From the NCBI RefSeq assembly GCF_030013595.1, contig NZ_CP122768.1: a stretch of 64,000 bases of DNA. The stretch is one strand, 5' to 3'. This DNA is from Escherichia coli. GTDB taxonomy: Bacteria; Pseudomonadota; Gammaproteobacteria; Enterobacterales; Enterobacteriaceae. A program made the translations under genes and the position numbers. The notes under the pieces are model-generated. The model ran no database searches. It worked only from the letters and a program-made list of their open reading frames with translations, and was not told the origin of the DNA. Shown here piece after piece: positions 1,989 through 58,362 of this stretch. The number at the start of each line of letters is the position of its first letter. Within the stretch, counting starts at the first letter, position 1.

Positions 1989-5207
<3,219 letters not shown>

Positions 5208-5224: not shown

Positions 5225-6373
5225 TTACTTAGCGGTTTTACGGTACTGCTCAATTAACTCGATAAAGTGGTCGAACAACGGCGCTGCGTCGTGTGGCCCA
5301 GGGCTGGCTTCCGGGTGACCCTGGAAGCTGAACGCCGGTTTATCGGTGCGATGAATGCCCTGTAACGTACCGTCGAACAGGGATTTATGCGTGACACGCA
5401 GGTTTGCAGGTAATGTTGCTTCATCCACCGCAAAACCGTGGTTCTGGGCGGTGATCATCACCACGTTTTTCTCCACATCTTTAACCGGATGGTTGCCGCC
5501 GTGGTGACCAAATTTCATTTTGACAGTCTTCGCACCGCTCGCCAGCGCCAGCAGCTGATGACCGAGACAGATGCCGAAGACCGGAATATCGGTTTCGAGG
5601 AATTTCTGGATGGCGGTAATGGCGTAATCGCACGGGGCCGGGTCGCCAGGACCGTTGGAGAGGAAGATGCCGTCTGGATTCATTTTCAACACATCTTCCG
5701 CAGAAGTTTGCGCCGGAACGATGGTCAGACGGCAGCCTCTATCCACCAACATGCGCAGGATGTTGCGCTTGGCACCAAAATCATAAGCCACAACATGGAA
5801 CGGCAGCTCGTCTTCTTTCTTCGCTTCTGGCAGGCCGCCGGTCAGCGTCCAGCTCCCTTGTGTCCAGCTATACGTTTCTGCGGTGGTCACTTCTTTTGCC
5901 AGATCCATGCCGTTCAGACCTGGGAACGCGCGGGCTTTTTCTAATGCCAGCGCCGCATCCGGGTTATCGCCTGCGATAATGCAGCCATTCTGTGCGCCTT
6001 TCTCGCGCAGTAAACGCGTCAGCTTACGGGTATCGATATCAGCAATCGCCACGATGTTATGGCGCTTCAGATAAGAAGAGAGGTCTTCGGTATTACGGAA
6101 GTTGCTGGCAATCAGCGGCAGGTCGCGAATCACCAGACCTTGTGCATGTACCTGAGAAGATTCTTCATCGGCGTCATTAGTGCCGACATTGCCAATATGG
6201 GGATAAGTAAGAGTAACGATTTGACGAGAATAGGAAGGATCAGTGAGGATTTCTTGATAACCGGTCATTGAAGTATTGAAAACGACTTCCCCAACCGCCG
6301 AACCTGTTGCCCCTATGGCCCGACCGTGAAACTGGGTTCCGTCTTCCAGAACCAATAGCGCTGACTTAATCAA
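5225..6373 (-). CDS. carA: Carbamoyl-phosphate synthase small subunit (glutamine amidotransferase)
   Basis: Translation matches CarA from [11 protein letters not shown]; start placed at the TTG codon (minus strand, plus-strand CAA at 6371-6373), the known non-ATG start of carA; 382 aa. Confidence 0.9.
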
Positions 6374-6387
6374 AACACCCTCCAGAG

Positions 6388-6425
6388 AATATTCACTCAC
6401 TTTATTTGCATATTAATTCACAATG
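6388..6425 (-). promoter_or_regulatory. Tandem ARG boxes (ArgR operator) at carAB promoter P2
   Basis: Minus-strand reads TGTGAATTAATATGCAAATAAAGTGAGTGAATATTC immediately upstream of the carA start, matching the ARG-box consensus. Confidence 0.65.
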
Positions 6426-6741
6426 ATGACGTAAATCAATGCAAATCTGCTTACCGACGAATTTCTGGCAAACGGCGGCATTCTGGAGATATGGGCGCTA
6501 AAAGTCAACTTAATGGCGGGATTTTTTATATTATTTTGTGGCTCATGCATGTTTTACAGGCATTAAGCGACAAAAAGATCATATAACATGTTCTGGAAAA
6601 CGCTTGCGCAGCAAGAAGATTGCATGAAATAAAAATGAGCAGAAAAAAGTGGACCAGATGGTCAAAATTTACATTAAAACAACAAAAACAGAAGACAAAA
6701 CATGTAATTTTCAGCACTTGCATTAAATTTAAAAGCATAAC

Positions 6742-6778
6742 ACCAAAAATAAAAGGGCCAAAAATTAAAGCCCTTTAT
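6742..6778 (-). terminator. Rho-independent terminator downstream of dapB
   Basis: Hairpin AAAGGGC-loop-GCCCTTT followed by a T-run on the minus strand, about 50 bp after the dapB stop. Confidence 0.5.
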
Positions 6779-6828
6779 ATTCAATGCATTAAATGTGTTA
6801 TTTTTGCATCACTATAAATATTTTGTGG

Positions 6829-13638: not shown

Positions 13639-14580
13639 TTAAGCCGGTTTTGTTAGCCCAAAAAATTCGCGGGCGGTTAATTCATCACGCGCAATCTGCG
13701 CTTTCAGTTCGTCCAGCGACGCAAATCGCTGCTCATTGCGTATTTTTTTACGCAGCACTACTTGTATATGGCGACCGTAAAGGTCCATTGCAACATCTAA
13801 CAAATGCACTTCCAGCTGCTGGCGAATACCGGCAACCGTTGGGCGTGTTCCGATGTTTGCCACGCCGGGTAACGGCTTTTCACCGAGGCCCAGCACTTCT
13901 ACCGCATAAACCCCTTTCACCGGGGAAACCTGACGGCGCAGCGGTACATTCGCCGTCGGGAAACCTATAGTGCGCCCTAATTCATCACCGTGGACTACAC
14001 GCCCGGAGATGGCAAACGGGTGCCCCAGTAAACTTTCTGCCAGAGCCAGATTGTCATCCGCAAGGGCCTGACGCACGGCGGTGCTGCTGATACGCACGCC
14101 ACCTTCGCAAAAAGTTTGCGTACTGGTGATATCGAAGCCGTATTCCATGCCAGCTTTCTGTAATAACAAGAAATCGCCTTCACGACCAGCGCCAAAGCGG
14201 AAATCATCCCCTACAGCAAGAAATTTTACGCGCAAATGCTTCACCAGAAGATCGCTGATGAAATTTTGCGCGGTTAACGCCGCGAAACGCCTGTCGAAAC
14301 GTACGCACAGCACGTAATCAACGCCACACTCTGCAAGGTAACGTAGTTTTTCCCGCAGCCGGGTCAGTCGTGCCGGGGCTTTATCGGTTGCAAACAGTTC
14401 CAGTGGTTGAGGTTCAAAAAGCATCACCATCACCGGTAAGTTGCGCTTGCGCCCTTCTTCCTGCAAGCCCTGTAACAGCGCGCGATGACCGCGATGCACG
14501 CCGTCGAAATTACCAATAGTCAGCACACACCCTTCTTGCGGGGCCTGGCTGAGATTATGTATGCCGCGTATCAGCTTCAT
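13639..14580 (-). CDS. ribF: Bifunctional riboflavin kinase / FMN adenylyltransferase
   Basis: 313-aa ORF MKLIRGIHNL...NFDGVHRGH... Confidence 0.95.
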   Translation of the reverse strand: MKLIRGIHNLSQAPQEGCVLTIGNFDGVHRGHRALLQGLQEEGRKRNLPVMVMLFEPQPLELFATDKAPARLTRLREKLRYLAECGVDYVLCVRFDRRFAALTAQNFISDLLVKHLRVKFLAVGDDFRFGAGREGDFLLLQKAGMEYGFDITSTQTFCEGGVRISSTAVRQALADDNLALAESLLGHPFAISGRVVHGDELGRTIGFPTANVPLRRQVSPVKGVYAVEVLGLGEKPLPGVANIGTRPTVAGIRQQLEVHLLDVAMDLYGRHIQVVLRKKIRNEQRFASLDELKAQIARDELTAREFFGLTKPA

Positions 14581-14587
14581 GTCTGGC

Positions 14588-14806
14588 TCAAAACAGTGAA
14601 AATCGTCCGAGTATACCTTGTACAGCGGTCAAGGTTAACCGGCGATTGAGTACCGAAATCAGAAAGAAGTGGCTTTTCATTGCCATGGCGCAAATCACGG
14701 GAAGAAACTGACCGCCTGCTGCAATTTTTATCGCGGAAAAGCTGTATTCACACCCCGCAAGCTGGTAGAATCCTGCGCCATCACTACGTAACGAGTGCCG
14801 GCACAT
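14588..14806 (-). CDS. yaaY: Small uncharacterised protein YaaY
   Basis: 72-aa ORF between ribF and rpsT, same size and position as K-12 yaaY; coding status uncertain. Confidence 0.45.
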   Translation of the reverse strand: MCRHSLRSDGAGFYQLAGCEYSFSAIKIAAGGQFLPVICAMAMKSHFFLISVLNRRLTLTAVQGILGRFSLF

Positions 14807-14887
14807 TAACGGCGCTTATTTGCACAAATCCATTGACAAAAGAAGGCTAAAAGGGCATATTCCTCGGCCTTTGAATTGTCCATATAG

Positions 14888-15172
<285 letters not shown>

Positions 15173-15196
15173 TCGCCAATTTGCTGAAGCTTTGTG

Positions 15197-15227
15197 AAAA
15201 AGCCCGCGCAAGCGGGTTTTTTTATGC
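15197..15227 (+). terminator. Rho-independent terminator of rpsT
   Basis: AAAAAGCCCGCGCAAGCGGGTTTTTTT hairpin plus T-run immediately after rpsT. Confidence 0.65.
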
Positions 15228-15655
15228 CTGCTGCTTTGTGATGTGTGAGAAAACACACTGCCGGTTGCCAGATAGTCAAAAGATGCTGGTTCTTGCAGAT
15301 ATGCAGTTACACTCTCTGGACTCTTCGTGGCTTAAGAATCGTAGAATCATCGGTTGATACATTCTGAATAAGAATATCTACTCAATCTTCAGACTCCCCC
15401 TACACAGAATGTGGAGATTGTGATACACATTGAGGTATTAAACTTAAGACCACTCTATTTTTGAATTAAATTCCTATACACTTTAACGATTCATAAATAT
15501 CTCCTTATTAGACCTTGTAAATTATTAACAGCAATCAACACAGGTTAACTACCTATTTATATTGTACTTCTTAAAATTAATGAGCGATTTTTGATAGTCC
15601 TCACATTCACTCATAAATTAAATTAAAAAAAATTCATCAACTTCAAGGACTGATA

Positions 15656-25874: not shown

Positions 25875-27368
25875 TTAGCCCCAGGTTACCGCTTCCGGTT
25901 TATCACCTCTGGCTTTCATTAATGAATCATTATCAATATCGGCTTTATACTTTAAGAACTTACCATACATTTGTTTTTCAATGTCTGGATTTTTACCTAT
26001 CTGATTAATGGTCTCAAAACGATCGGTTTTGAGGTTGTATAGATACTTTGGCTTATTGTTACGATCGATGATCATTTTCCAGTCACCATCACGTATCGCC
26101 CATTCGTCGGTTGGATCATCCTGGAATGGCATGTCAATTCCGAAGATTAATGGCTTTTCACGTTTTAGCGCCTTGTTCTCAAGGACAGGAACCAACGATT
26201 CGCCATCAAAAGTCCGGTCCGTCGGTAATTTGAAGTTCATCATTTTCGCCAGCGTAGGCATCCAGTCCAGACCATAAACAGGCGTATCTGAAACCATTCC
26301 CTTTGGAAGATGCTTTCCGTATTTAATAATCGCCGGAACACGGATGCCGCCTTCCCAGAGATTATCCTTGCGACCACGTAATCCATCAGTTTCCCCTGCC
26401 AAATTCAGTTCATAAACTTTACGTGCTTCACGGGTTACTGGGCCGTTATCACTGGTAAAAATAACGATGGTGTTATCTTCTTCACCCATCGCTTTGATTT
26501 TATCCAGTACTTTTCCAACCTGAGCATCCAGATAACTGATGTTGGCATAATATTCTCCTGGACCACGCCAGGGTTTATCCGCCCAGTCGCCATAAAATAA
26601 ATCAGGATGCTGCTTCTGATATTCGCTCATATATTGTGAGTACATGTCGAGGTATTTTTTGGGCGAAGCCAGGGGACTGTGCACTTCGGTAAAAGCGACA
26701 TAAAGGAAGAAAGGCTTACTGTCCTTTTTGTTATCCAACCAGTTGACGACTTCCGAACTGACATACTCACCACTCATTTTATCGGCACGAGGTGTGGGTT
26801 GCCCGTTACGCAACCAGCCCGTTGGATAGACCATGCCAAAACGGGGACGCTCCTTCGCATTATCCAGAGTAGCGTCGGTAACAAAACCCGCCGTATTAAC
26901 CAGTGAGTAATCAAAGCCCATATCTTTTGCCTGCGGCTGATCGGTGCGATCGCCGCCTGCATTCAGATGCAGCTTACCCATCATGGCCGTGTCGTACCCT
27001 TGCGCTTTGAGTAGATTAGCAATCGTGAGTTCATTACGCCCTAATGCCACATCTTTTCCCGTTGGGATCCATGAGCGTATGCCGGTACGAAATGGCATCC
27101 GCCCCGTTAATAACCCCGCCCGCGAAGGAGAACTTAAGGGAGCTGGTGCATAGTAGTCAGTAAATTTGACGCCCTCCTGGGCAAGCCTGTCAATATTGGG
27201 GGTTTTAACGATCTGATGTCCATATGTTGCTAAATCACCATAGCCTAAATCATCCGCCATAATGATGACTAAATTGGGTTGTTTAGTCTCGGCAGCTACG
27301 ACTGGATTAAAAGCATTCCCTGTGCAAACTGCAAGGCCGATCAAACTGGCCATTAATGTTTTCTGCAT
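25875..27368 (-). CDS. Periplasmic sulfatase, Ser-type (alkaline-phosphatase superfamily)
   Basis: Start placed at MQKTLMASLIGLAVCTGNA (signal peptide); sulfatase motifs LVIIMADDLGYGDL and S-S-P-S-R-AGLLTGR (27120-27134) with Ser at the formylglycine position. Confidence 0.8.
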   Translation of the reverse strand: MQKTLMASLIGLAVCTGNAFNPVVAAETKQPNLVIIMADDLGYGDLATYGHQIVKTPNIDRLAQEGVKFTDYYAPAPLSSPSRAGLLTGRMPFRTGIRSWIPTGKDVALGRNELTIANLLKAQGYDTAMMGKLHLNAGGDRTDQPQAKDMGFDYSLVNTAGFVTDATLDNAKERPRFGMVYPTGWLRNGQPTPRADKMSGEYVSSEVVNWLDNKKDSKPFFLYVAFTEVHSPLASPKKYLDMYSQYMSEYQKQHPDLFYGDWADKPWRGPGEYYANISYLDAQVGKVLDKIKAMGEEDNTIVIFTSDNGPVTREARKVYELNLAGETDGLRGRKDNLWEGGIRVPAIIKYGKHLPKGMVSDTPVYGLDWMPTLAKMMNFKLPTDRTFDGESLVPVLENKALKREKPLIFGIDMPFQDDPTDEWAIRDGDWKMIIDRNNKPKYLYNLKTDRFETINQIGKNPDIEKQMYGKFLKYKADIDNDSLMKARGDKPEAVTWG

Positions 27369-27387
27369 AATTATTCCCTGATGAAAA

Positions 27388-28149
27388 TTAGAAATCATAA
27401 CCAAGCATATAAATCATTTGATCGCCAAAACCATCGTAGCCCAACTTATTATCGAAATAACGCCACGTCACACTGGCTTTCCAGCGAGGATAGAACTTCC
27501 AGGCCACTGTTAAACCGCCATTTAGCCCATTCCGACCAAATTGTTGTTCCGCATAGGCATCATTTCTGTCCAGTTCTATTTCATTCCAGTTAGATAAAAC
27601 AAATTTTTCGTCAAATAACGTAAAAGGTAATACTGCTGTCCAGCCAACAACATAACCATTCCAGCCATTTGTTTGTCCATATTTGGCTGAGACGTAGTCT
27701 CCAGATTGATTATGTAATCCAATATACGGTTTAAAAAACCCCCATGAACCATTCCTGCCGAGGTAGCCCAAACCATAAAACATATCAAGATCGTCACCCC
27801 ATGAGTTATCCCATTGACCATAGATCTTGCCAAAGAAAGTCATATTGGAGTCAAAGAGTCTGACATGTGTCATAGCAGAAACGGTATGATTACGCCCCGC
27901 TACGGCATGGTTAAGCACATTGCTTTCATAAAATGAGTAAAACTCGGCTTCTTTAAAATTCACACCAAAGTCCGCAGTCACTTTCCATACTTCACCACGA
28001 TGAGTGTTAACGAAGCCACTATTCCAGTCAGCATAACCTGCATTTATTGAGCCAAAGGAACCTTTATATTCTAATGAAGAATATGCAGGAAGGTGATAGA
28101 AAATCGTTGTCAGGGCACACGCAATAAGAAGCCGTCTTTTGGCAGACAT
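27388..28149 (-). CDS. Outer-membrane channel, Tsx/OmpK-like family
   Basis: 253 aa, signal peptide, Trp/Tyr/Gly-rich beta-barrel composition, C-terminal ...MLGYDF resembling the Tsx terminus ...VGYNF; immediately upstream of the sulfatase. Confidence 0.6.
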   Translation of the reverse strand: MSAKRRLLIACALTTIFYHLPAYSSLEYKGSFGSINAGYADWNSGFVNTHRGEVWKVTADFGVNFKEAEFYSFYESNVLNHAVAGRNHTVSAMTHVRLFDSNMTFFGKIYGQWDNSWGDDLDMFYGLGYLGRNGSWGFFKPYIGLHNQSGDYVSAKYGQTNGWNGYVVGWTAVLPFTLFDEKFVLSNWNEIELDRNDAYAEQQFGRNGLNGGLTVAWKFYPRWKASVTWRYFDNKLGYDGFGDQMIYMLGYDF

Positions 28150-28665
28150 ATAATATGAATATGCTCTCCATTCATTGTTTTTATGGTTCCATAGAAATCA
28201 ATACATCAGATAATTCATTTTGATTAAGAACGACTCAGAAAGTATATTTAAAGGTGAATGGCAAAGCGTGATGGAGATCGCAGATTACTTTTACCCCCGG
28301 GTGTGGAGGTATCGTGTTTCAAAAAGTGTGTCTATTTTAAATATCACTCATTGATTTATAGACATTTTTTCCTTATAAAAAAACACTAAATTCTGTACAA
28401 GAATTATTTTGTATCTTCTACTACTTTCTCCAGTAATAACTCACCTTTCAGGCATAACTTAAATCTGCTTGTTCATAATCTCAATTTTTGTAAATGAAAA
28501 GGCACATAAGAGTTAAAATAAACAATGATCTAAAGATTAATTACGCAAAAATGCGAGGCGTCTTCAGGATTAGAATCGATAAAACAGAATGGGTTAAAGA
28601 GAGCGATATAATAGCGGCGGGTGCTTGAGGCTGTCTGTCTCAGGCATTAGCTGAACGGCAGATAG

Positions 28666-28720
28666 AGAAAAGCCCCGAGTGATATTTTACTATCAACCCG
28701 AGGCCCCCTATATGCAGAAC
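28666..28720 (-). ncRNA. sokC: sokC antisense RNA (type I antitoxin)
   Basis: Placed by positional correspondence to K-12 sokC overlapping the mokC start; not independently verified by structure. Confidence 0.4.
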
Positions 28721-28921
28721 ACATGTAGAGTGCCTCTTACTGACCGTAAGGTCAAGGAGAAGAGAGCAATGAAGCAGCATAAGGCGATGATTGTCGCCCT
28801 GATCGTCATCTGTATCACCGCCGTAGTGGCGGCGCTGGTAACGAGAAAAGACCTCTGTGAGGTTCACATCCGAACTGGCCAGACGGAGGTTGCTGTTTTC
28901 ACGGCTTACGAATCCGAGTAA
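28712..28921 (+). CDS. mokC: mokC, overlapping regulatory reading frame of hokC
   Basis: 69-aa frame MQNTCRVPLTDRKVKEKRA... ending at the hokC stop. Confidence 0.7.
   Translation: MQNTCRVPLTDRKVKEKRAMKQHKAMIVALIVICITAVVAALVTRKDLCEVHIRTGQTEVAVFTAYESE
28769..28921 (+). CDS. hokC: Hok-family membrane toxin HokC (Gef)
   Basis: 50-aa MKQHKAMIVALIVICITAVVAALVTRKDLCEVHIRTGQTEVAVFTAYESE, a Hok-family sequence. Confidence 0.85.
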   Translation: MKQHKAMIVALIVICITAVVAALVTRKDLCEVHIRTGQTEVAVFTAYESE

Positions 28922-28931
28922 GAGCAACGGC

Positions 28932-30293
28932 GGGGAGTGATCCCATAAGCGCTAACTTAAGGGTTGAACCATCTGAAGAATGCGACGCCTCGGTGCCTCG
29001 TTAAGACGATGCCTCGCGTTCTTCAATTGCGTTTTGTAGGCTGTCAGGGATACTGTCCCACGAATGGCCACCTGTAAGCTCCAGATGACCATTTTTGTTA
29101 TTCTCCACAACGAGTTAGTTCTTCTTTTCGGATCCGGCACTTCTGGGGGGAAATCCAGCGATGGCTGGATTATGTCGTCAATTAAAAATGCGGCGAGTAG
29201 ATTAGCAAATATCCACGCTTTCGCGAGTTCAGGTTCCTTTGCACGCAAAGCATCCAGGTGCAGCAAACTTTTGAGCCGCTTAAAAGCCAGTTCAATTTGC
29301 CATCGCAGACGGTAACAATCAGCCACTTGCTCTGCTGAATATTCATCTTCCGGTAATGATGTTAGCAATAGCACATGGCCCGCTGCTTCCAGCGTTTCCG
29401 CCTGAACTACTCGTCCTTTTCGACGATTCTCGCTGAGCAGTCGGGTTTTACTGATTAATGCTTTTTCGGGAGGAAGTGATACGGCAATGAGACGTGCCGG
29501 AAAGGGAGCTCCGGCTTTTTTATTACCTGAATTGCCTATCATTACAGTGGTTTCACCGTTCTTACCGCAATCCAGCCCGCGCAGAAAACCCATCATGTCA
29601 AAGCGCATTCCTTCTGCAGTTAACCAGCGCAATCCTCGCCAGTGAACCCGGACGATATAATCAGCTTCTCCAAAAGCAAGTGAGCGGATACATTCGGGAC
29701 GCGAACCGAATCCCCGGTCAGCAATGCGTATCTCGTCTGCCGTTTGCGCAAATCGGTCCAGCCGTTCAGCGTCTCTGCTGTCGGTTAGCTCAAAATCAGT
29801 GAACTGACAGGTATGAGGATCATATCCCATATGTAGTCGCCATTCAGCGCTGCCGCCCCCGGGCGCACTGATTGCTGTTCCATCGACAAGACGCAATCTC
29901 TTTCCGCTTGTACAACCCGTAACTGCGGCGCGTACAGCAAGTGTTTGTGCGGCAAGTATGCCAAACCAGTCGGCGGCATTCCGCAGCCGCTTCAGGAGAG
30001 CCACGTCAGATAATGTTGCAACGTCATGGAGCTGAGCCCATGCAGTGACTTCACGTAATGACATCCCCCCGGGGCCGTAAGCCAGCCCCAGACGTAGCAG
30101 AGTTGCAGCATCACGAATTTCGCGGCGGCGGGTTAGAGCCCCGGCATTACGTGCCGAAGTATCCAGTTCTTCGGGCTTACCAATATGGGCCAGAATTGCT
30201 GACCAGTTATCGTGAGAGTAATTCATCGGCACGTTAAATCATATCAGGCGTAATACCACAACCCTTAAGTTAGCGCTTATGGGAGTGATCCCC
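28932..30293. mobile_element. IS186 (IS4 family) insertion sequence, boundaries approximate (about +/-10 bp)
   Basis: Terminal inverted repeats GGGGAGTGATCCCATAAGCGCTAACTTAAGGGTTG (28932-28966) and reverse complement (30259-30293) flank one transposase ORF; about 10 bp after the hokC stop. Confidence 0.85.
28952..30226 (-). CDS. insL: IS186 transposase (IS4 family DDE), C-terminus variant relative to K-12 InsL
   Basis: MNYSHDNWSAILAHIGKPEELD...; Y-x2-R-x3-E-x6-K motif (YRLRWQIELAFKRLK) present; ORF runs 63 aa past DFPP. Confidence 0.75.
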   Translation of the reverse strand: MNYSHDNWSAILAHIGKPEELDTSARNAGALTRRREIRDAATLLRLGLAYGPGGMSLREVTAWAQLHDVATLSDVALLKRLRNAADWFGILAAQTLAVRAAVTGCTSGKRLRLVDGTAISAPGGGSAEWRLHMGYDPHTCQFTDFELTDSRDAERLDRFAQTADEIRIADRGFGSRPECIRSLAFGEADYIVRVHWRGLRWLTAEGMRFDMMGFLRGLDCGKNGETTVMIGNSGNKKAGAPFPARLIAVSLPPEKALISKTRLLSENRRKGRVVQAETLEAAGHVLLLTSLPEDEYSAEQVADCYRLRWQIELAFKRLKSLLHLDALRAKEPELAKAWIFANLLAAFLIDDIIQPSLDFPPEVPDPKRRTNSLWRITKMVIWSLQVAIRGTVSLTAYKTQLKNARHRLNEAPRRRILQMVQPLS

Positions 30294-30372
30294 GCCACTT
30301 TACAGGTGCTCGCATATCTTCAACGCACCCTATTTTTACCCAGGCCTGCCCACGGGCAGGCTTTTGGGGAGG

Positions 30373-31503
30373 TTAGCGGGTCAGGTCGTCAAAAAACTTC
30401 TTCACACCATCAAAGAAGCTCTTTGAGCGCGGGCTGTTGTGCTCGCCGGTTGGGCCACCGAAGCTTTCTTGCAGCTCTTGCAGCAGCTGTTTCTGCTTCT
30501 CGTTCAGGCCTACCGGTGTTTCGACGACAACGCGGCACAGCAAATCACCCTGTGCGCCACCGCGGACAGACTTGACGCCTTTACCGCGCATACGGAACAG
30601 CTTACCGGTCTGGGTTTCGCCAGGCACTTTCAGTTTGACGCGACCATCAAGGGTCGGTACTTCGATTTCGCCACCCAGCGCCGCCATAGCGAAGTTGATC
30701 GGGACTTCGCAATAGAGGTTGTTGCCTTCACGCTCGAAAATCGGGTGCTGTTTAACCTGAACCTGAACGTACAGATCGCCTGCCGGTGCGCCATGCTCGC
30801 CCGCTTCACCTTCGCCCGCAAGACGGATGCGGTCTCCAGTGTCCACCCCTGCCGGGATTTTAACGGACAGCGTTTTGCTGCGCTCAACACGACCATGACC
30901 ATGACATTTGTTGCACGGATCTTTGATCAGCGTACCCCGGCCCTGACAGTGTGGACAGGTCTGCTGCACGGCAAAGAAACCCTGGCGCATCTGCACCTGA
31001 CCAGAACCATGACAGGTCGGACAGGTCTGCGGCTGTGTACCTGGTTTTGCACCGCTACCGTGGCAAACGTCACACTCCTCCAGAGTCGGAATGCGGATCT
31101 CTTTGGTCACGCCACGTACAGCTTCTTCGAGGGTGAGCTCCATGTTATAGCGTAAATCAGCACCGCGCGCCGCACGTTGACGACCACGTCCGCCGCCAAA
31201 AATATCGCCGAAAACGTCACCAAAAATATCGCTGAAGTCTGCGCCGCCGCCGAAACCGCCGCCGCCCATGCCACCTTGCTCAAACGCAGCATGACCATAC
31301 TGATCGTATGCCGCACGTTTTTGCGAGTCGGTCAGAACTTCATAAGCTTCCTTGATCTCTTTAAATTTCGCCTCGGCCTCTTTATCACCCTGGTTACGGT
31401 CCGGGTGGTATTTCATGGCCAGGCGTTTGTAGGCCTTTTTGATTTCACGCTCTTCCGCTGTTTTGGAAACGCCTAAAATCTCGTAATAATCTTGCTTAGC
31501 CAT
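30373..31503 (-). CDS. dnaJ: Chaperone protein DnaJ
   Basis: [12 protein letters not shown]... J-domain, Gly/Phe-rich region, four CxxCxGxG zinc-finger repeats; 376 aa. Confidence 0.95.
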
Positions 31504-31591
31504 CTTTTTTAAATTGCCCCTAGATGAATGCACGGGCGGAGAGGAAATTCCCCTTCGCCCGTGTCAGTATAATTACCCGTTTATAGGGCGA

Positions 31592-45242: not shown

Positions 45243-45285
45243 GTCGAAAAAAAAGCCCGCACTGTCAGGTGCGGGCTTTTTTCTG
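45243..45285 (-). terminator. thr operon attenuator (leader terminator)
   Basis: AAGCCCGCAC-loop-GTGCGGGCTT hairpin followed by a U-run on the minus strand, between thrL and thrA. Confidence 0.8.
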
Positions 45286-45300
45286 TGTTTCCTGTACGCG

Positions 45301-45369
<69 letters not shown>

Positions 45370-58211: not shown

Positions 58212-58362
58212 TGCCGGATGCGGCGTGAACGCCTTATCCGGCCTACAAACCAAGAAATTTCAATACGTTGTGAATCTCCAGGCCTGATAAGACGCGGTAA
58301 GCGTCGCATCAGGCATTGAGCACCGAATGCCGGATACGGCGTGAACGCCTTTTCCGGCCTAC
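58212..58362. repeat. BIME / REP cluster (three palindromic units) in ettA-nadR intergenic region
   Basis: GCCGGATGCGGCGTGAACGCCTTATCCGGCCTAC, an inverted central unit, and GCCGGATACGGCGTGAACGCCTTTTCCGGCCTAC. Confidence 0.65.

Follow-up and report, generated by a model that had tools for sequence, protein, structure and literature searches.

The carAB control region has been under study since 1984. In the original carA sequence published in that year, Piette et al. reportedly left open whether translation starts at UUG or at AUU, and Weyens et al. (1985, Eur J Biochem) are said to have shown experimentally that the CarA N terminus comes from UUG. A 2018 review of carAB regulation (PMC6245113) gives TTG as the carA initiation codon and places the start of promoter P2 67 nt downstream of that of promoter P1, with the P1 transcripts reading through the operator; in the literature, the P1 start lies 100 nt upstream of the carA TTG. 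According to the same review, one hexameric ArgR binds two 18-bp ARG boxes, 3 bp apart, that form the operator of P2 (PMC6245113). Repression of P2 by ArgR is approximately 50-fold and is documented by footprints and operator mutants for the K-12 sequence (PMC6245113), which is identical to that of the window, the 64-kb stretch of Escherichia coli DNA analyzed here.

The window almost certainly carries this textbook E. coli carAB control region, with its UUG start, its tandem promoters, and an ArgR operator on P2. The feature is real and correctly interpreted, and it is already known. We computed the anatomy of the sequence, its identity to K-12, its match to annotation, the uniqueness of the operator, and the conservation of the TTG and Shine-Dalgarno (SD) sequence as opposed to that of the upstream codon; for the binding of ArgR and the repression that it exerts, for the start points of the promoters, and for the role of TTG as the initiator, we relied on the literature. 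The carA gene occupies positions 5225 to 6373 on the minus strand, with its TAA stop codon at 5227 to 5225, and encodes the 382-residue small subunit of the glutamine-hydrolyzing carbamoyl-phosphate synthase (CPSase). The gene for the large subunit, carB (1989 to 5207, minus strand), begins with ATG preceded by its own AGGAG motif, 17 nt 3' of the carA stop. The CarA protein of the window aligned with chain B of PDB entries 1CS0, 1BXR, and 1JDB over residues 1 to 382 (E = 9e-261 for 1CS0_B), and the CPSase small-subunit chains in the PDB are 382 residues long and begin with MIKSALL. A single substitution, A167T, distinguishes the protein from that of K-12. The assignment as CarA thus follows from full-length identity to the structurally characterized E. 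coli small subunit together with the presence of carB immediately downstream.

An earlier note on this DNA had read the plus-strand CAA at 6371 to 6373 as a minus-strand TTG that initiates carA, and both the sequence and the translation agree with this reading, as the TTG is followed by ATT AAG TCA GCG, encoding the CarA N terminus. The same note had stated that no ATG is present at the conserved N terminus. Indeed, the carA frame is closed upstream by an in-frame TAA (6415 to 6413, minus strand), its first ATG stands at codon 36 (Met36; 6268 to 6266, minus strand), and inspection of the frame between these two positions revealed no in-frame ATG. A GGAGG SD sequence is located at 6383 to 6379 on the minus strand and is separated from the TTG by the 5-nt spacer GTGTT, a functional spacing. 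On the minus strand, the order of the elements is TTGATTTACGTCATCAT-TGTGAATTAATATGCAAA-TAA-AGTGAGTGAATATTCTCT-GGAGG-GTGTT-TTG-ATT-AAG-TCA-GCG. The UUG therefore stands in frame at the boundary of N-terminal conservation with no intervening in-frame AUG, as is characteristic of a gene that initiates at UUG. The earlier note had called this unusual start known, and TTG is indeed the start in RefSeq/PGAP, the K-12 record, and the 2018 review (PMC6245113). Comparison with curated annotation, one of the checks that had been proposed, mapped the carA starts of PGAP (strain PCN033) and of K-12 b0032 exactly to window position 6373, indicating that curated annotation already uses the TTG. By exact-sequence look-up, the CarA protein is found in the databases at 382 residues on at least 1,000 public contigs. 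No carA entry or peptide was present in the TRAINSPOTTER N-terminomics supplements. For its experimental side, the assignment of the TTG at 6373 to 6371 as the carA initiator draws on the statements of the review and on what Weyens et al. reportedly showed; it is supported by three converging lines of evidence, namely the SD signal, the transcript structure, and the comparative data, from which we conclude that TTG is the carA start.

We compared the region upstream of this start with the ARG-box consensus WNTGAATWWWWATTCANW, an 18-bp imperfect palindrome. ARG box 1 (6405 to 6422; minus-strand sequence TGTGAATTAATATGCAAA) has 1 mismatch to the consensus, would lie over the -10 region and the start point of P2, and is the top single ARG-box match in the 64-kb window. 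ARG box 2 (AGTGAGTGAATATTCTCT on the minus strand; 6384 to 6401) has 3 mismatches and is the promoter-distal box, and its end directly adjoins the SD sequence. The spacer between them is 3 bp (TAA, 6404 to 6402), a separation that places the boxes on the same face of the helix. The carA pair thus consists of two 18-bp palindromes that match the consensus at a spacing of approximately 3 bp, as is typical of an ArgR operator. Two boxes had been described in the earlier note and both are real, but the distance of 15 to 50 bp given there does not hold, as they occupy the interval from 11 to 49 nt upstream of the first base of the TTG. A tandem pair with no more than 4 mismatches in total occurred once in the 64-kb window and in none of 300 dinucleotide-preserving shuffles. 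Single boxes with up to 3 mismatches numbered 21 against an expected 8.8 in this AT-patchy window, an enrichment of only approximately 2.4-fold. Among the best 80 of approximately 600 loci in the species comparison described below, the tandem 18+3+18 geometry was retained in 77 of 78 species, and the box 1 core TGAATTAATATGCA was nearly invariant in the Enterobacterales. Operator, SD sequence, and UUG form a compact conserved block of approximately 52 bp.

The pyrimidine-controlled promoter P1 was identified by a promoter scan as TTGACT-17-CAGAAT at 6473 to 6508 on the minus strand; it is conserved, and its start is the G at 6473 (GTTTGCC). The position obtained from the published 100-nt distance, 6473, agrees with the promoter found by the scan and with the 5' end of the short RNA ES003 (K-12 position 29551). 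A simple sigma-70 consensus scan of the region called P1 and did not call the arginine-repressed promoter P2 (6406 to 6439, minus strand), whose position was accordingly derived solely from the published distances. Arithmetic from those distances puts the P2 start at approximately 6406, inside ARG box 1, with an AT-rich -10 region also inside this box. A conserved -35-like hexamer, TTGATT, is present at 6439 to 6434; this near-invariant motif is likely the -35 element of P2. The review attributes the overlap of the ARG boxes with P2 to the -35 element (PMC6245113), whereas the published distances put box 1 over the -10 region and the start point.

ES003 (Rfam RF02750; 6421 to 6473, minus strand; 87.4 bits versus a gathering score of 37) was the sole known RNA family that Rfam placed over the carA leader. 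It corresponds to the 5'-terminal 53 nt of the transcript from P1 (K-12 29551 to 29603) and stops 1 nt short of ARG box 1. In the study of Rau et al. (2015), ES003 was 133-fold down in stationary phase and had no terminator. An ArgR roadblock, a polymerase roadblock at P2, or RNA processing could each give rise to its 3' end. Folding of the full P1 leader was no better than that of its shuffles (z = -1.5), and RNAalifold returned no consensus structure for 63 distinct P2-leader sequences; conserved RNA structure has no part around the SD sequence and UUG. A local E. coli hairpin formed by GAAUAUUCU and AGGGUGUUU was rejected, as it lacks conservation and is a weak structure with many G-U pairs. 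The riboswitch-candidate motif described for Betaproteobacteria carA is unrelated to this leader.

These features suggest the following working of the region. Transcription would start at two tandem promoters, from approximately 6473 at P1, giving a 100-nt leader, and from approximately 6406 at P2, giving a leader of approximately 33 nt. Arginine-bound hexameric ArgR would occupy both boxes, from 6384 to 6422. As the boxes would cover P2 from its -10 region through its start point to about the twentieth transcribed base, RNA polymerase would be excluded from P2, and transcripts from P1 would run through the operator. On both mRNAs, the strong GGAGG would position the 30S subunit, and the UUG 5 nt further on would yield the 382-residue CarA beginning fMet-Ile-Lys-Ser. 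The in-frame GTG at 6400 would be merely a part of ARG box 2 and not an initiator. We infer that the weak start codon and the strong SD sequence are selectively maintained together. No data at odds with this explanation of the carA control region were found.

The conservation of the start was analyzed in a set holding one genome per species, from which the best 80 of approximately 600 loci were taken; 78 of these kept the N terminus. The 78 species belong to many genera of the Enterobacterales and to Vibrio, Photobacterium, Aliivibrio, Grimontia, and Enterovibrio, and their proteins are 82 to 96% identical to that of the window. Within these best 80 of approximately 600 loci, the homologous codon was TTG in all 78 other species, GGAGG lay exactly 5 nt before it in 77 of the 78, and four of the five SD positions were invariant. 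The three bases of the TTG and the A that follows were likewise invariant in this set, whereas nearby wobble positions differed in 20 to 35% of species. Codon 2 was ATT, ATA, AGT, AGC, AAT, AAA, or ACT across the 78 species, and the invariant A at +4 is thus explained by a second codon that always begins with A, which is simpler than coupling through an overlapping TTGA. Such coupling to an upstream open reading frame was rejected, as the frame concerned holds only ATG-CAA-ATA-AAG-TGA and a GTG-started 8-codon open reading frame, both without an SD sequence. The start codon of carA is therefore conserved in orthologues and the alternative starts are not, the pattern that marks a genuine UUG gene.

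Within E. coli, we used megablast with a 30-mer that comprises the SD sequence, the TTG, and codons 2 to 5, and this 30-mer was matched in 5,409 of 5,426 complete genomes, a match being at least 28 consecutive identical bases, any such 28-base run spanning both the SD sequence and the TTG. In contrast, the 30-mers substituted with ATG or GTG matched none of the 5,426 complete genomes. Sixteen E. coli genomes with carA differ somewhere inside the SD-TTG 30-mer. The carA control region also matched three records labelled as plasmid in the E. coli genome collection.

We also scanned 241 million metagenome records for the conserved N-terminal coding pattern with the first base restricted to A, C, or G, a design in which TTG-type loci are not counted. 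The scan returned four non-TTG loci, three starting with ATG and one with GTG, all from distant lineages with 46 to 72% identity over the first 149 residues, and no non-TTG start was found among close relatives in the 241 million records. The use of ATG or GTG in distant lineages indicates that CarA as such has no need for TTG, and that it is the enterobacterial and vibrio lineage that retains this codon. Separately, metagenome contig Ga0127508_1162586 (L084, positions 2043 to 2080, minus strand) carries a very AT-rich carA locus with approximately 68% N-terminal identity, in which GGAGGAT..TTTTG is retained, the frame is shifted by 2 nt, and a GTG just downstream is the start. This was the only case of close architecture seen with a non-TTG start.

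We tentatively propose that strict purifying selection holds the weak TTG and the invariant GGAGG-N5 beside the ArgR operator across the Enterobacterales and Vibrionaceae, a reading that we regard as possible rather than probable. The depth of TTG conservation, in counts that are uncorrected for phylogeny, would be compatible with selection for a weak start without proving it. If the proposal is correct, a low or tunable rate of carA initiation would be functional and not a historical accident; the weak start might limit the free glutaminase subunit relative to CarB, and CPSase synthesis might become sensitive to the fidelity state of the initiation factors. The quantified invariance of the TTG across two bacterial orders, which could motivate a start-codon swap, is the only mildly new point in a control region that otherwise offers nothing new biologically.

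The other start codons in the region were weighed against the TTG. A GTG in the carA frame, located 27 nt before the TTG (6398 to 6400, minus strand), lies inside ARG box 2 and begins the longest open reading frame, of 391 codons; we judged it not to be the real start. The earlier note had taken this codon for an upstream ATG, which is incorrect, as the minus-strand codon at 6400 to 6398 is GTG (CAC on the plus strand). The only nearby ATG (6409 to 6411, minus strand) lies out of frame inside ARG box 1, where it opens a 4-codon open reading frame (ATG CAA ATA AAG TGA), and it was probably this ATG that was mistaken for an upstream start.

The GTG could in principle be used in addition to the TTG, such that the P1 mRNA gives a minor 391-residue isoform and the P2 mRNA gives the 382-residue protein only. 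The GTG has a 73-nt leader on the P1 mRNA and on that mRNA alone, and the A-rich sequence in front of it could permit weak SD-independent initiation. However, it lacks an SD sequence, the 391-residue extension is not conserved and is broken by stop codons in relatives, and in the reviews examined we found no mention of a second CarA isoform; dual initiation is accordingly improbable.

Initiation at the GTG as the only start, which would produce a 391-residue CarA with its first nine codons within ARG box 2, is very unlikely. No start codon stands between the in-frame stop and this GTG, and GTG as a rule initiates better than TTG; furthermore, exact-sequence look-up showed that GenBank and IMG entries of the identical CarA protein, such as ACB19208.1 from E. 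coli SMS-3-5, have been deposited at 391 residues and begin at this codon. Against this, the only sequence upstream of the GTG is AAUAUGCAAAUAAA, which contains nothing SD-like, and the codon is approximately 6 nt from the inferred 5' end of the P2 mRNA, which leaves no room for a ribosome-binding site. Among the best 80 of approximately 600 loci, only 44 of 78 species had a start codon at the homologous -27 position; this codon lay behind an in-frame stop in 11 and was a non-start codon in 23 (34 of 78 together), with GCG, CTG, TCG, or CCG found there in close Enterobacteriaceae relatives, and 20 of the 78 species had no upstream in-frame start whatever. The -27 segment is conserved as an ARG-box palindrome and not as codons, and the curated annotation, the PDB sequences, and the literature all use the TTG instead. 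The concern in the earlier note that annotation software might shift the start into the operator was nevertheless well founded, since a program that lists the longest open reading frame picks 6400, inside ARG box 2, and the 391-residue entries, with GTG as their first codon, are its public counterparts.

The codon directly after the UUG, AUU (6370 to 6368, minus strand), is also highly improbable as the start. AUU can initiate translation in E. coli, as in infC, and its 8-nt spacing from the GGAGG would still be workable. In 25 of 78 species among the best 80 of approximately 600 loci, however, codon 2 is ATA, AGT, AGC, AAT, AAA, or ACT, whereas the TTG is invariant, which excludes AUU as the conserved initiator, and TTG is the codon given in every annotation and in the subsequent literature. 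Initiation at the codon 36 ATG (6266 to 6268, minus strand) has next to no likelihood, since the 347-residue protein that it would give, although deposited in KDW76733.1, KEM55838.1, and CBK87648.1, begins at a codon without an SD sequence and lacks residues 2 to 35, which belong to the solved structure and are strongly conserved in the protein of all 78 relatives among the best 80 of approximately 600 loci.

With the TTG as the start, carA provides a clean test case for start-codon calling. A longest-ORF rule lands inside a repressor binding site, and rules that admit only ATG cut away 35 conserved CarA residues. The latter misannotation, opposite in direction to the 391-residue entries and exemplified by KDW76733.1, was absent from the earlier note; both types of error are present in public databases for the identical protein.

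Several other features of the window were observed. Just upstream of the carAB control region, in the 3' untranslated region of dapB, positions 6745 to 6822 (minus strand) weakly resemble the Salmonella 3'-UTR small RNA DapZ, at 29 bits and below the gathering score of 56, and include a terminator-like GGGC...GCCC hairpin and a run of T residues. In E. coli PCN033 (L001), the dapB-carA interval is 455 bp of intergenic DNA without RefSeq features, across which the locus tags pass from RS00160 to RS00175; two earlier gene calls have apparently been withdrawn there. A low-GC island (GC of 0.34 to 0.43) extends from approximately 14000 to 22000 and contains chaperone-usher fimbrial genes at 17379 to 20469 on the plus strand (Fimbrial, PapD, and usher). 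The usher open reading frame has only 603 codons, and its match to the Pfam Usher profile extends over 419 of the 549 profile positions; the gene may therefore be disrupted. Next to nhaA and nhaR (23083 to 24249 and 22118 to 23041), a sulfatase-family gene (509 residues) overlaps a gene for a Tsx-like channel (253 residues) at 25875 to 28149 on the minus strand. For a 426-residue open reading frame near nhaA and nhaR (24501 to 25781), no Pfam match was found at 1e-5. Known RNA elements in the window include the sok antitoxin of hokC/sokC (28619 to 28771, plus strand), tpke11 (31504 to 31581, minus strand), the threonine operon leader (45246 to 45365, minus strand), and naRNA4 (58281 to 58359, minus strand). 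The position of the thr leader implies that the carA-thrL interval is approximately 9.5 kb longer than in K-12.

Comparison with described systems places the locus closest to E. coli K-12 MG1655. Window positions 6508 to 6340, from the P1 -35 element to carA codon 11, are identical to K-12 29516 to 29684, and the annotated start and ARG-box geometry of K-12 carA (b0032; 29651 to 30799) are the same. The two differ in three single-nucleotide polymorphisms further upstream (6636, 6588, and 6583) and in the A167T substitution of CarA, and the control region itself is without differences. A 451-nt query over the region matched many E. coli chromosomes at 100% identity and was present in 5,425 of 5,426 complete genomes. 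The carAB operon of Salmonella Typhimurium has the same architecture, with tandem promoters and ArgR repression of P2 at two adjacent ARG boxes, a likeness taken from the description in the review (PMC6245113), as the 80-locus set holds no Salmonella locus. The loci of Citrobacter, Enterobacter, Kluyvera, and other enterobacteria have near-identical ARG boxes, SD sequences, and TTG codons. By analogy, the AUU start of infC may be regarded as a similar case, being a rare initiator that is widely conserved together with defined initiation signals; unlike for infC, we know of no autoregulatory or IF3-dependent mechanism for carA. The other ArgR operators of E. coli (argCBH/argE, argF, argI, argR, artJ, and others) are likewise paired 18-bp imperfect palindromes, approximately 3 bp apart, that lie over a promoter. 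In contrast to these arginine-regulon operators, the carAB operator governs just one of two tandem promoters, the downstream one, adjoins the SD sequence, and is read through from P1 (PMC6245113).
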